Part shown: positions 25,202 to 45,313 of the stretch, piece by piece
Numbering within the stretch: the stretch's first letter is position 1
Layout: the number at the start of each line of letters is the position of its first letter
DNA from: an uncultured Gammaproteobacteria bacterium
GTDB lineage: Bacteria; Patescibacteriota; Microgenomatia; UBA10105; UBA927
NCBI GenBank assembly: GCA_964367095.1
Contig: CAYIXE010000003.1
Location: forward strand, 1-45,620
DNA length: 45,620 nt
Reading direction: 5' to 3'
Made by a program: the position numbers and the translations under genes
Notes under the pieces: model-generated
Databases searched by the model: none
What the model was told of the DNA's origin: nothing
The model's input: the letters and a program-made list of their open reading frames with translations, nothing else

Positions 25202-25545
25202 TGCTTCCAAAACAGTACAGGATTTCTTCAAAAGACATGCGTCTTGTGTTGCAGCGTGGTAGATTTGTGCGTTTCAAGAGCTTGAAATTTGTCGTTCTTT
25301 CTTTGCCCATGAATGATTCCCCAAAGATTGGGTTTATTGTTTTGATGCGAACTGAGAAGAAGGCCGTTGCGCGTCATAAAATAAAGAGATGTTTGCGACA
25401 AGCCGCAATGTCTTTACTCCAAGAATTTTTGCCACCCTACGGATATGTAATAGTCGTTGATCAAAAAATAGTCTCCCCTTCGACAAAAACACTCATCCCT
25501 ATTTTGAAACAAACAGTCGCCTTATTGAATATGCCGAAGACATGA
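25201..25545 (+). CDS. rnpA: RNase P protein component
   Basis: [25 protein letters not shown] (RNR-motif variant); synteny with rpmH and yidD. Confidence 0.88.
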
Positions 25546-42455: not shown

Positions 42456-42812
42456 ATGCAAGAAGATGTACATATCAAAAACGTTTGGATGGGAGGGCTG
42501 ATCATGCTTCTTAGCCTGATTTTGAGCGTGCGGGCTGTCGCTACCATTATCGATCTTCGCGCGAGGAAATACACCGTTACTGAAAGAAGAGAGGCGGTTG
42601 AAGCTGTGAAAAAAGAGAATGAAGTCTTGCAAAAGCAGATTGAGGCTGTGGGGAGCGAAGAATATGTCGAAAAAATAGCTAGAGACAAGCTTGGGATGGT
42701 AAAAGAAGGGGAGTCTATAGTATTACTGCCCGATGAAGCAAAAGGCGGGAGTAAAAAAGAAGAGCTTTTAAAGCGCACGAATTGGCAGCAATGGTGGGGA
42801 TTGTTTTTTTAG
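42456..42812 (+). CDS. ftsB: Septum formation initiator FtsB/DivIC
   Basis: TM plus coiled coil, then EYVEKIARDKLGMVKEGE. Confidence 0.8.
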   Translation: MQEDVHIKNVWMGGLIMLLSLILSVRAVATIIDLRARKYTVTERREAVEAVKKENEVLQKQIEAVGSEEYVEKIARDKLGMVKEGESIVLLPDEAKGGSKKEELLKRTNWQQWWGLFF

Positions 42813-42884
42813 TGCCAGCGGCAGGGATCGGACCTGCTACCAATGCTTTATGATAGCATCGCTCTACCAATGAGCTACGCTGGC
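42813..42884 (-). tRNA. tRNA with CAU anticodon, probably elongator Met (Ile2 not excluded); no encoded CCA
   Basis: Manual fold: GCCAGCG/CGCTGGC acceptor, GCTC/GAGC D stem, ATGCT-ATCATAA-AGCAT anticodon arm, GCAGG-TCCGATC-CCTGC T arm, discriminator A. Confidence 0.9.
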
Positions 42885-43561
42885 GTTTTTGCTGTAGATA
42901 AACCATCAATAAGCCCAAGAACCTCGTAATACAATTGTGCGGGTTGTTTTACTTTTACTGTGAATGTTCCAAAGTGCTGATAAAAATTCTCATATACTTT
43001 TTTGTTTTGCACTTTTTTAAAACTTGTTTTACTGAATTGATTCAATGGTATATGAGTCACATCTGACCAATATGTTTTTACATCCTCTTCTCTTGATCTG
43101 TGAATTTCATTTATTCCTACATAACAACGCAATCTTTGAATAGGTATATCGAAACATTGATACAGCCAAGTAAGCATAAATTGTACTAGTTTTGGGTCTG
43201 AGTTGCAAAAGGTAAGCTCTCGTTTCTTTTTTGTTCCCTCTGCCCAATAAAGTGCAATGCCCGCAATAAAAAGTTCTCGTTTGGAAATAATTGGAAAAGC
43301 ATTTTTCCCTTTTTGTATTCCATCGTCGATACGTTTTAGTCTGTCTTGTTTTTGCTTCATAGCCCCAAGCAAGCGACCTCGCTCTGAGCCTTTTAAACTG
43401 CATTTTCGTAATGTTTCGAGTTGTTCTATGGATAGGATAATATCCCGCACCCACAGACTGGCGGTGCTTCTTGACACATGAAGTTGTTGAGCAATCGTTC
43501 GAACACTTATTCCCTTTGCTCTCATTTTTCTTGCTTCTAGATTGAGTTGAGATTTGGCCAT
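42875..43561 (-). CDS. HTH protein with a C-terminal LAGLIDADG-like domain
   Basis: HTH ARKMRAKGISVRTIAQQLHVSRSTASLWVR; GIALYWAEG.K...FCNSDP motif. Start ATG 43561. Confidence 0.75.
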   Translation of the reverse strand: MAKSQLNLEARKMRAKGISVRTIAQQLHVSRSTASLWVRDIILSIEQLETLRKCSLKGSERGRLLGAMKQKQDRLKRIDDGIQKGKNAFPIISKRELFIAGIALYWAEGTKKKRELTFCNSDPKLVQFMLTWLYQCFDIPIQRLRCYVGINEIHRSREEDVKTYWSDVTHIPLNQFSKTSFKKVQNKKVYENFYQHFGTFTVKVKQPAQLYYEVLGLIDGLSTAKTPA

Positions 43562-43562
43562 A

Positions 43563-43613
43563 TTTCGAACCAACCAATAGTACAAATAATAATACTATTT
43601 TAGTGGTTCGAAA
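43563..43613. promoter_or_regulatory. Long imperfect inverted repeat upstream of the HTH gene (candidate operator)
   Basis: TTTCGAACCA (43563-43572) / TGGTTCGAAA (43604-43613) with inner AATAGTA / TACTATT. Confidence 0.55.
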
Positions 43614-43630
43614 GATTTAAATCAAGATGA

Positions 43631-44203
43631 TCATTGTGTGGTTATGTGAACGCGGGATTGATTGAGGTTAGTAAGGCCTTTAAGTTGTGACTTCATTTGA
43701 ACTTGATAGAGCTTGTTTCCTTTATCCAGAGTTATAGTAGGGGAGGTGAGAAGTTGTGCGCCAGACGTATCGGTAGTTACTTCTGAATACCACACGGGAT
43801 GCTTGTCTGTGGCGTTAAAGAGACGTACCCATACGCGTTGACTTCCCGCTGGGGTGACGACTGTTGCTTCAAATCGAGCCTCTTTAATTTTCCCATACGA
43901 GGAAGTATCAATATACGCACTCGCGCCAGCTACATCGGTCCAGTCGTCGGTTGCGTTTGTGCCAGATCCTAATGGCACGTAATATTCTTTAGCACTGCTT
44001 GTTACTGTTTTCCCCGTTGCTTGATTGATGCGGGCGATGCAGGCGGTGGGACACGTGTCGTTTGTGGTGGTGCCAAGCACGGTTCCGCCGTAGAAAAGTT
44101 TACTCACGACAATGATATCTAAAACGAGAATGTTTATCGCAAGAAACAAAAGAAGCCAAGGTGTGTAGTTGGGAGATTTTTTGGAAGATCGAGAAGCTGT
44201 CAT
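43631..44203 (-). CDS. Hypothetical membrane-anchored protein with a beta-rich domain
   Basis: N-terminal TM, CPTAC motif. Start could be 44221. Confidence 0.75.
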   Translation of the reverse strand: MTASRSSKKSPNYTPWLLLFLAINILVLDIIVVSKLFYGGTVLGTTTNDTCPTACIARINQATGKTVTSSAKEYYVPLGSGTNATDDWTDVAGASAYIDTSSYGKIKEARFEATVVTPAGSQRVWVRLFNATDKHPVWYSEVTTDTSGAQLLTSPTITLDKGNKLYQVQMKSQLKGLTNLNQSRVHITTQ

Positions 44204-44356
44204 GTATATATAGTGTAGCACTTTTTTTATATTTAATGCCTTCAGTTGTGGGGCTACGAGAAAGTAAAACCTAAGTTCTCACAAAGCCGTACTTGCATAC
44301 GCAACAGTAATATGGTATAGATAAAATATCATGTTATACCATATTAGATTGGCCAT

Positions 44357-45313
44357 ATGATATTAGATACCCAGCTTGCATCTCGCATAGACGATAAGCT
44401 AAAAAAGCTTAACTCCCTTCGTCCGCTGCCATCGTCTATTATCATAAAACTCAAGCAGCAATTTGCTATTGAAATGACGTATAACTCAAATGCAATAGAG
44501 GGTAATTCGCTCACACTCAAAGAAACCACGTGGGTTATACAGGATGGTTTAACTATCAAAGGGAAATCGCTCAAAGATCATTTAGAGGCGAAAGATCACT
44601 ATGACGCATTGGAATTTTTGTATGAAACCGTTGAACATAACACGCAACAAACGATTTCTGAAGTATTTATACGAACGCTTCATCAGCTGGTGGTTCGAGA
44701 AACCGAGAGAGAAGATGCGGGAAAGTATAGAGCGGTCAACGTCATGATTATGGGAGCTGACCATACACCGCCGGATGTAAGTGAAGTTTCTTTAAGAATG
44801 CATGATTTTATTCAGTGGATTAAAATGAATCAGAAAAAGCTTCATCCAATCGAGCTTGCGGCGCTCATTCACCATACATTGGTTTATATTCATCCATTTG
44901 CTGACGGAAACGGACGAACCGCCCGCCTTATTATGAACCTTACACTTATGCATGTGGGGTATCCGCTTGTTATTATACTAAAAAATGATAGACGGAAATA
45001 TTATCGTGCGTTATCACAAGCAGATAAGACCAATTATCAACCACTTGTGCGCTTTATCGCTCAAGCCATTGAACGATCGCTGAATATTTATCTTAAAGTG
45101 TTAGTTCCTGCTAAAACTGATGAAGGGAGATACGTTTCATTATCAACGCTTGCAAAAGAAACACGATTTTCAGATAAATATCTCAATTTGCTTGCCCGAT
45201 ACGGCAAGATTGAAGCACATAAAGAAAAACGGATCTGGGTGACGACAAAAGACGCGATAGAGCGATATATACAAAATCGCCAAAGAAACCGAAAAATAAA
45301 TAGCCCGTATTGA
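44357..45313 (+). CDS. Fic-domain protein with a probable C-terminal HTH
   Basis: Catalytic HPFADGNGRTAR; SNAIEGN inhibitory-helix motif; C-terminal SLSTLAK...YLNLLARYGKI.A.K...W. Confidence 0.9.
   Translation: MILDTQLASRIDDKLKKLNSLRPLPSSIIIKLKQQFAIEMTYNSNAIEGNSLTLKETTWVIQDGLTIKGKSLKDHLEAKDHYDALEFLYETVEHNTQQTISEVFIRTLHQLVVRETEREDAGKYRAVNVMIMGADHTPPDVSEVSLRMHDFIQWIKMNQKKLHPIELAALIHHTLVYIHPFADGNGRTARLIMNLTLMHVGYPLVIILKNDRRKYYRALSQADKTNYQPLVRFIAQAIERSLNIYLKVLVPAKTDEGRYVSLSTLAKETRFSDKYLNLLARYGKIEAHKEKRIWVTTKDAIERYIQNRQRNRKINSPY

Follow-up and report, generated by a model that had tools for sequence, protein, structure and literature searches.

A helix-turn-helix/LAGLIDADG-like gene pressed against elongator tRNA-Met in a patescibacterial genome is probably part of a homing-endonuclease-like cassette

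The stretch of DNA analysed here, 45,620 nucleotides (nt) of contig CAYIXE010000003.1 from assembly GCA_964367095.1 (Patescibacteriota), referred to throughout as the window, carries on its minus strand an open reading frame (ORF) that ends inside the gene for tRNA-Met(CAT). The ORF begins with ATG at 43561, encodes 228 amino acids (aa) and stops with TAG at 42877-42875, a triplet that is at the same time U8-A9-G10 of the tRNA. Just upstream of its start lies an imperfect palindrome that overlaps a promoter-like sequence, followed by a gene for a hypothetical protein, U196. An earlier interpretation of the locus, made from the letters alone and called here the sequence-only reading, had listed the ORF, an N-terminal helix-turn-helix (HTH) in its product, the tRNA and the palindrome; all of these were found again, and direct reading of the frame confirmed that it ends ACG CCA GCG TAG on tRNA nt 1-10 (Table 1). 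We argue below that these elements probably make up a free-standing, tRNA-anchored selfish cassette of a homing-endonuclease-like kind.

Table 1. Features of the ORF/tRNA-Met locus, in window coordinates.
Feature	Position	Strand	Basis
ORF, 228 aa + stop: HTH, long helix, C-terminal single LAGLIDADG-like domain	42875..43561	minus	reading frame, relatives, AF2 model
HTH domain, residues about 1-42	43436..43561	minus	Pfam HTH_23, E 7.7e-6; VIA matches
Single long helix, residues 45-88, joining both domains	43298..43429	minus	model secondary structure
LAGLIDADG-like domain, residues 89-228	42878..43297	minus	domain-only model, VIA, profile
Motif ALYWAEGTK, residues 103-111, equivalent of the LAGLIDADG helix	43229..43255	minus	78 ORFs, I-DmoI alignment
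Elongator tRNA-Met(CAT) gene	42812..42884	minus	ARAGORN call; Rfam tRNA 62.1 bits, E 1.8e-12
ORF/tRNA overlap, 10 nt	42875..42884	minus	tRNA nt 1-10 = last base of ACG, CCA, GCG, TAG stop
51-nt imperfect palindrome/hairpin, right arm ending 2 nt before ATG	43563..43613	minus	palindrome scan, RNA folding
Sigma-70-like promoter match, TTGATT-17 nt-TAAAAT	43597..43625	minus	9/12 consensus matches
753-nt segment (ORF, palindrome, promoter) absent from a near-identical metagenomic allele	42885..43637	minus	one X18 contig
Upstream neighbour U196, 196-aa hypothetical protein	43631..44221	minus	reading frame; empty-site comparison

The tRNA is the only elongator tRNA-Met found in the assembly, because the other CAT tRNA that ARAGORN called in the genome (on contig C93) shows the C1-A72 mismatch that marks initiators and because the genome also contains tRNA-Ile(TAT) and tRNA-Ile(GAT). 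The window gene is thus the sole non-initiator CAT tRNA from ARAGORN in an assembly that is 98.6% complete. On its other side, a convergent FtsB-like gene (42456..42812, plus strand) touches the 3' end of the tRNA with its stop codon (42810-42812), which leaves the tRNA enclosed between coding sequences.

An AlphaFold model (AF2) of the whole protein, built from 32 relatives (pLDDT 86.8), fell into three parts: an HTH (residues 1-40), the long helix and an alpha/beta domain (94-223). The HTH postulated by the sequence-only reading was borne out by Pfam HTH_23, which scored 26 bits against a cut-off of 24.6 in the window protein and matched all 32 of 32 aligned relatives; searches with VIA paired it with a resolvase HTH and with SIRV1 ORF55 (Z 6.3-6.8). 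NCBIfam and PHROGs searches of the protein gave matches in the HTH part only, and at E<=1 Pfam returned only HTH families for the window protein. The structural matches of the linker helix in VIA were all of coiled-coil type.

The C-terminal domain was modelled on its own (pLDDT 93.8) and compared by VIA with 48,161 chains. Ten chains reached Z>=5, and seven of the ten listed are LAGLIDADG-fold proteins. In this search WhiA scored 7.0, 5.7 and 5.7, the TliVMA intein endonuclease 6.9, E-DreI and I-DmoI 6.4 each, I-Vdi141I 5.3 and intein endonuclease II 5.1, with I-CeuI next at 4.9. The matches span residues 1-139 of the domain model, in agreement with the core of the LAGLIDADG fold (alpha-beta-beta-alpha-beta-beta-alpha), and a search with the whole protein returned the same families. 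The LAGLIDADG fold suspected by the sequence-only reading was thus found by structure search, at moderate scores. The top rows given by Foldseek, OmpA-like proteins (YfiB/MotB) and IspF, were set aside (TM about 0.4, high rmsd); I-DmoI appeared there from rank 17. A GIY-YIG (Seg-type) identity was likewise rejected, as there was no Pfam GIY-YIG match and the fold is LAGLIDADG-like, and so were the MOB1 rows from a single-protein phmmer search against PDB sequences, which were at chance level. A search of the ESM Atlas with residues 89-228 yielded nothing usable among the named clusters.

The best PDB match of the family profile is the second LAGLIDADG motif of I-DmoI (residues 97-144), with an E of 0.23-0.29 that is not significant alone. 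The alignment places lyWaEGtK over the I-DmoI sequence LYVAEGDK, and with it E108 and K111 of our protein over E117 and K120 (numbers counted from the start of the alignment at residue 97); PDB titles name the I-DmoI variants E117A and Q42A/K120M, the latter nicking. Among the 78 intact ORFs of 79 homolog loci, Y105, W106, E108, G109 and K111 are identical in every one, and N120, S121 and D122 in 74-75. The family therefore has, in E108, an invariant acidic residue that ends the helix and aligns with E117, and the GIALYWAEG helix that had been likened to a LAGLIDADG motif proved to be the part that the profile aligns with I-DmoI, its glutamate and lysine conserved. From model and alignment we conclude that the domain has a LAGLIDADG-like fold and retains the motif acid and lysine. 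Its sequence places the domain in no existing curated family.

Its own family is large. There were 298 relatives at E<=0.001 among 600 candidates, at least 554 confirmed matches in one-genome-per-species contigs and 5,697 clusters at 50% identity (E<=0.001). Neighbourhoods were counted for the best 79 loci among the confirmed matches. In 61 of the 79, a tRNA on the same strand starts between -31 and +99 nt from the stop codon, as against 8 of 989 open frames of at least 150 codons that end so near a same-strand tRNA start in the genome of the window itself, a count that includes the ORF. By a stricter measure, in which the tRNA had to start no more than 80 nt from the codon aligned with residue 221, 59 of the 79 are adjacent to a tRNA: 50 to Met-CAT and 9 to Gln-TTG, at gaps from -10 to 54 nt (median about 17). 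Lys-CTT (locus L072) and Arg-TCG (L073) are further partners. The association of the family with tRNA genes is not due to chance, and the enrichment of homologs beside tRNA genes, on which the sequence-only reading had staked its case, is real.

Four other frames of the genome of the window (C2, C21, C13 and C54), which end in or near tRNAs, were considered as family members and rejected: hmmsearch with its filters off gave E 0.3-0.6 for three of them and nothing for C54. On contig C2 (49456-50203) the frame, of 192 codons and outside the family, takes up the whole interval from tRNA-Ala(CGC) to tRNA-Ala(GGC), and its stop falls at nt 19 of the latter; in relatives, this tRNA-Ala(GGC) site is occupied by family members.

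More distant paralogs in relatives adjoin tRNA-Trp, Gly-GCC, Arg-GCG, Arg-TCT, Ala-GGC, Tyr, Ile-TAT and Gln. Where no tRNA was detected, the paralog in most cases adjoins a group I intron, probably within a tRNA gene (13 intron matches in 18 loci searched). The genome of the window holds three family copies, one of which (L081, C76:570-4220; 33% identity) is followed after about 150 nt by a group I intron (Rfam 64.4 bits), apparently inserted in a tRNA gene. In a maximum-likelihood tree of 104 rows each clade goes with its own tRNA species (9 label changes in all), and the Met clade comprises 76 rows (support 98).

The exact place where the frame ends varies. Among the 59 adjacent homologs, whose rows are not independent of each other, the stop codon overlaps or lies inside the tRNA in 37 and is wholly upstream of it in 22. 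Within the tRNA it falls at nt 8 in 22 homologs, at nt 9 in one, at nt 13 in two, at nt 19-21 in four, at nt 36-37 in four and later in three. The last conserved residue is 1-54 nt from the tRNA start (median about 17), and the relatives end in short C-terminal stretches (PA, MAG, SG, VAQW and so on) that are translated tRNA 5' ends. The overlap is thus a by-product of the tight fit of the gene against the tRNA: the gene is pressed so close that conserved TAG/TAA triplets of the tRNA halt any frame that enters. The excess of stops at nt 8 may stem from common descent or from a preference for short tails.

Occurrence of the family is patchy. Some member of it was present in 22 of 41 relatives, in 8 of 17 genomes of the same genus, and in 42 of 201 genomes drawn evenly from the phylum (Patescibacteria; 38 of 170 genera), where no genome gave more than five matches and some copies carry internal stops. 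An orthologous tRNA-Met could be identified in 15 of 18 genomes of the genus. At three of these sites, in genomes G009, G011 and G012, the order is U196, tRNA-Met, FtsB-like gene and Xer, with no ORF; the U196 stop is followed by a spacer of about 48 nt containing TTGTTT...TAAAAT and then by the tRNA. Another member of the genus, G002, has an occupied site with the same flanks and an ORF 56% identical to ours. Comparison of relatives, as the sequence-only reading had suggested, thus gave occupied sites (G000, the genome of the window, and G002) as well as empty ones at one and the same position, and this presence and absence, the sporadic spread and the decayed copies are together the pattern of a homing element. 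In other members of the genus a second CAT tRNA lies upstream, either adjacent or about 1 kb away. In two genomes of the latter kind, G008 (L113:2265-2510) and G005 (L114:569-814), the interval between the two CAT tRNAs holds an 81-aa ORF together with a protein of glycine-rich RNA-binding type; judged by eye, we take the 81-aa product to resemble a GIY-YIG nuclease domain, which would make it a further nuclease-like gene next to this tRNA.

Both forms of the site were also met in metagenomic sequence nearly identical to the window. A contig from metatranscriptome run X18 joins tRNA nt 1 (42884) to the end of U196 at 43638, with 54 other letters in place of the 753 nt; its tRNA part matches 73/73, and its 32-nt U196 end has one mismatch. 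A contig from DNA run X9 has ORF and tRNA identical to the window and other sequence beyond the tRNA 3' end, and the X18 empty-site contig likewise has a foreign flank. Single low-depth contigs of this sort show that both forms exist, not direction or frequency. The tRNA edges look like recombination junctions. Pieces of the locus occurred in two metatranscriptome runs at a contig depth of 2-4, too little for transcription, 5' ends or processing.

The nearest relative of the window ORF is that of L001 (67% identity, support 96), which comes before the same-genus copy in G002 (56%, support 95), whereas the Xer of L001 is 70% identical, compared with 79-86% within the genus. The conflict that these sequences suggest between the affinities of ORF and Xer is modest. 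The tRNA-Met/FtsB-like/Xer neighbourhood is widely conserved in the class and includes the ORF in the same position. Two related copies of another gene of the window, a 318-aa ORF at 44357-45313 on the plus strand, lie near the L001 cassette; this ORF contains HPFADGNGRTAR, presumably a motif of the Fic-domain type.

The family also extends to Streptomyces, which contributes 2 of the 79 homolog loci. Among 101 sampled Streptomyces genomes, 73 have a family match and the other 28 none. About 60 matches are single copies of full length, at 51-67% identity with the query; about ten are short fragments, and several full-length matches have internal stops. A tRNA-Gln(TTG) follows directly downstream in 10/10 Streptomyces loci examined, and it is also the partner of the Gln clade in Patescibacteria. 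Names given to these proteins at source are 'hypothetical protein', 'helix-turn-helix domain-containing protein' and similar.

Upstream of the window ORF, the 51-bp palindrome noted by the sequence-only reading was confirmed. Its outer arms (43560-43572 and 43604-43616) are 13 nt long, 92% complementary and 31 nt apart, and its inner arms read AATAGTA/TACTATT. Folded as RNA (43613..43563), it forms a hairpin of -20.4 kcal/mol (z -5.3), and 0 of 200 shuffles folded as well. We rejected a terminator, as the scan gave no terminator-like site and the stem is not followed by a run of T. The left arm occupies the spacer of the promoter match and the -10 box lies between the arms, so that the expected transcription start falls inside the palindrome; the promoter itself is a consensus match only, one of 3 such sites in the region when 2.6 would be expected by chance. 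The layout is the same in G002 (TTGATT-17-TAGACT, with arms TCGAACC/GGTTCGA). In many relatives, a first half made of a -35 box, (Y)GAACC with a variable stretch and a -10 box is followed, after about 20 nt, by a second half in which the complementary variable stretch and GGTTC(R) lead directly to the ATG. A strict GAAC...GTTC pair at fixed positions was counted in 11 of 80 upstream regions, where shuffles gave 0.23 (maximum 2 in 500), and GGTTCR immediately ahead of the start codon in 9 of 80, where 0.30 would be expected. A general palindrome scan at a score of at least 9, which is noisy in AT-rich DNA, picked 19 of 80 regions and 8.5% of shuffles. The element thus recurs in the Met and Gln clades without being universal.

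Both arms of the window palindrome contain TTCGAACC/GGTTCGAA, in which the sequence-only reading had seen the T-loop consensus of tRNAs. The likeness holds for GGTTCGAA, and there is no evidence that the arms derive from a tRNA; the T-arm of the adjacent tRNA reads GGTCCGATCC, unlike the T-loop-like GGTTCGAA of the arms. The T-loop of the elongator tRNA-Met is unusual in this genus, with GGTCCGATCC in place of GGTTCGAATCC (C at position 55) in the window and in L112-L124, and that of the L001 tRNA-Met reads GGCTCGATCC.

We consider it rather likely, if well short of certain, that the locus represents a free-standing, tRNA-anchored, homing-endonuclease-like selfish cassette. The sequence-only reading had offered a tRNA-linked selfish endonuclease cassette as one of two options, and that part of it gains support from the LAGLIDADG-like fold, the tRNA enrichment and the presence and absence at one locus; the T-loop origin of the arms does not. 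The cassette would consist of a promoter within a palindrome and a single HTH-linker-LAGLIDADG gene, wedged between U196 and nt 1 of tRNA-Met. Its protein would act as a homodimeric, site-specific endonuclease that cuts cassette-free alleles in or near the tRNA gene, whereupon repair would copy the cassette in ('intronless homing'), and the conserved tRNA gene would serve as a very slowly changing target and as a homology arm. The palindrome would hold expression low in one of two ways. It could be an operator for the dimer, giving autorepression as for I-TevI; or its hairpin could mask the ribosome site whenever transcription reads through from upstream, while messages begun at the internal promoter would come without the left arm. 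The arrangement of the sequence makes autoregulation through the palindrome plausible. The HTH might read a T-loop-type motif, with SegB as precedent.

Several observations weigh against the selfish cassette. The structural scores are middling, the best of them (Z 7.0) lying below the caution line of the tool at 8 and each being weak alone. Foldseek found no match in the PDB at E<=0.001, either for the whole protein or for the domain alone, and when 32 members were scanned at E<=1 no LAGLIDADG family stood among the 25 most-matched Pfam families listed of 71. The empty X18 allele is one low-depth contig that could equally be a deletion. The window tRNA matches the empty-site tRNAs of its genus at 66/73 positions but that of L001, source of the nearest ORF, at 58/73, which gives no support to co-transfer of the tRNA with the cassette; the tRNA being of host-genus type, the boundary of the cassette is therefore placed at its first base, with no sign of co-conversion. 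Two peptide patterns gave 20 matches in IMG/VR viral contigs, among which tblastn, at limited sensitivity, recognized no relative. The palindrome architecture is seen in about a quarter of loci or fewer, and the idea of an operator that resembles the target found no support, as local alignments of the palindrome with three empty-site junctions on both strands scored 12-14 and shuffled means were 13.5-14.3. Finally, most copies are intact, the motif is invariant across phyla and about 60 of 101 Streptomyces genomes have a single full-length copy, all of which would also fit a domesticated host function.

Such a function could be that of a domesticated WhiA-like regulator which no longer cuts but binds the palindrome over its own promoter and sets the level of the downstream tRNA. 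We regard this as unlikely, though it is the alternative that survives best. WhiA is the top structural match, and PMC3240954 describes it as a protein that has both a LAGLIDADG-like domain and an HTH and that binds to its own promoter. The centre of the palindrome falls on the -10/start region; the last 75 nt before the window tRNA contain nothing promoter-like, whereas empty sites have TTGTTT...TAAAAT directly before theirs; the Streptomyces copies are mostly intact and single; and source annotations read 'transcriptional regulator' or 'hypothetical'. A regulator of this kind would, however, be missing from about half of the same-genus genomes and from about four fifths of the phylum sample, and the tRNA has no need of the protein, because empty sites exist at which it has its own promoter. 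Even in G002, where the site is occupied, a promoter-like site for the tRNA lies inside the 3' end of the ORF. The residues matching E117 and K120 of I-DmoI are invariant, which is unexpected once catalysis has been lost, and pseudogenes and several paralogs per genome also speak against a regulator.

The sequence-only reading had further proposed that RNase P, in cleaving the tRNA 5' end, would strip the ORF of its stop codon and so couple tRNA maturation to inactivation of the message. Co-transcription followed by 5' processing that leaves a non-stop message appears possible at the window locus, because the 75 nt upstream of the tRNA hold no promoter-like site and the ORF itself contains another match, some 295 nt before the tRNA. 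Stop-stripping cannot be a requirement of the whole family, because 22 of the 59 adjacent homologs have their stop wholly upstream of the tRNA. Promoter-like sites were counted for 14 of 59 family-adjacent tRNAs and for 8 of 44 tRNAs of the genome of the window, in a strict scan that missed the visible promoters of the empty loci L112 and L116. The window contains an RnpA gene (25204-25500) and the genome a tmRNA. Searches of the 129-contig assembly with RF00010 and RF00011 gave no RNase P RNA, which is not evidence of absence given that RnpA is present; the gene may be unassembled or divergent.

A more elaborate account joins these elements into one and is, taken as a whole, quite unlikely. 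The cassette would be the gatekeeper of an essential tRNA, placed between the single elongator tRNA-Met gene and its transcription signals, the tRNA being made from the palindrome promoter. The HTH would read T-loop-like GGTTCGA half-sites both in tRNA genes, as the cutting target (much as SegB recognizes the T-arm), and in the palindrome, for autorepression; tRNA 5' processing would remove the stop codon and pass the non-stop mRNA to tmRNA; the dose of nuclease would be tied to tRNA maturation; and each protein clade would be the partner of one tRNA, including in Streptomyces tRNA-Gln(UUG), the reader of CAA codons.

An ordinary vertically inherited gene, its tRNA adjacency due to conserved synteny with repeated loss and its overlap incidental, is decidedly improbable. 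The wide conservation of the tRNA-Met/FtsB-like/Xer neighbourhood in the class, with the ORF in place, would agree with it, as would protein clades that broadly track large taxonomic groups. Synteny, however, cannot account for paralogous clades that each sit at a different tRNA species, it leaves unexplained why the Gln clade has the same tRNA partner in Patescibacteria and Streptomyces, and the closest relative of the ORF comes from outside the genus. Least probable is an RNA-directed helper, a LAGLIDADG factor of maturase type that would bind the precursor of the tRNA, or introns in tRNAs, and assist in processing or splicing: LAGLIDADG maturases exist and several paralogs adjoin group I introns in tRNA genes (the 13 matches in 18 loci, the copy on C76 among them), but the window tRNA-Met has no intron, most family members adjoin intron-less tRNAs, the N-terminal domain is a DNA-type HTH, and the empty sites show tRNA maturation without the protein.

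If its members are active homing endonucleases, the family would be a large free-standing lineage of LAGLIDADG type at the 5' edge of bacterial tRNA genes. Phage tRNA clusters are known to offer such a niche (SegB), but for the tRNA genes of bacterial chromosomes our full-text literature searches brought up no account of a family of this kind. It could explain why spacing and gene order vary around the tRNA genes of ultra-small bacteria, supply a possible mobility partner for ORF-less tRNA introns and offer new long-target nucleases that carry an additional HTH module. In Streptomyces the family has crossed phyla and yet keeps its tRNA partner, and this branch makes the question testable in a cultivable and genetically tractable host.

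Among known systems, WhiA (PDB 8dy9_I, 3hyi and 3hyj) shares with our protein the combination of a LAGLIDADG-like fold and an HTH. In WhiA, two LAGLIDADG-like domains precede an HTH at the C-terminus, whereas here there is one domain and an N-terminal HTH. WhiA is also a conserved host regulator that is not known to have the catalytic acid; the family described here keeps the glutamate and lysine, is patchy (42/201 and 8/17 genomes) and is tied to tRNAs. Domain order and number thus differ from those of a WhiA-type regulator, and the gene is not present throughout its clade.

In genomic setting the closest parallel is with T4 SegB, which PMC2330249 describes as a free-standing homing endonuclease of the GIY-YIG family whose gene lies in the tRNA cluster of T4, with a recognition site that includes the conserved T-psi-C stem-loop motif. 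Both are free-standing genes of endonuclease type among tRNA genes, and the palindrome arms here carry the T-loop-like GGTTCGA. SegB differs in being a GIY-YIG enzyme of a phage for which cleavage and homing have been demonstrated, whereas our protein is LAGLIDADG-like, cellular and known from sequence. In its control region, the locus recalls I-TevI. PMC2988022 reports autorepression of I-TevI at an operator over its own late promoter, together with a hairpin that sequesters the ribosome-binding site, and, for I-TevI, II and III, segB and mobE, a promoter inside the RNA structure that masks this site and yields translatable transcripts. I-TevI resembles our system as an HTH-bearing endonuclease; here too, a palindrome/hairpin lies over promoter and ribosome site, and transcripts from the gene's own promoter would be without the 5' arm. 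I-TevI is, however, intron-encoded and of GIY-YIG type, and its operator resembles its homing site, whereas our palindrome is no more similar to the empty site than shuffled controls are.

The LAGLIDADG homing endonucleases (I-DmoI, E-DreI, I-Vdi141I, I-CeuI and intein domains) are similar in C-terminal fold, at Z 4.9-6.9 over 79-88 aligned residues, and in I-DmoI the motif helix YVAEGDK, with E117 and K120, aligns with AEGxK of our protein. In contrast to them, the protein described here has no Pfam LAGLIDADG match and a single domain, so that a homodimer would be needed, and it bears an additional N-terminal HTH and a 44-residue linker helix. Its gene, moreover, stands free in a bacterial chromosome, outside introns and inteins, at the 5' end of a tRNA.

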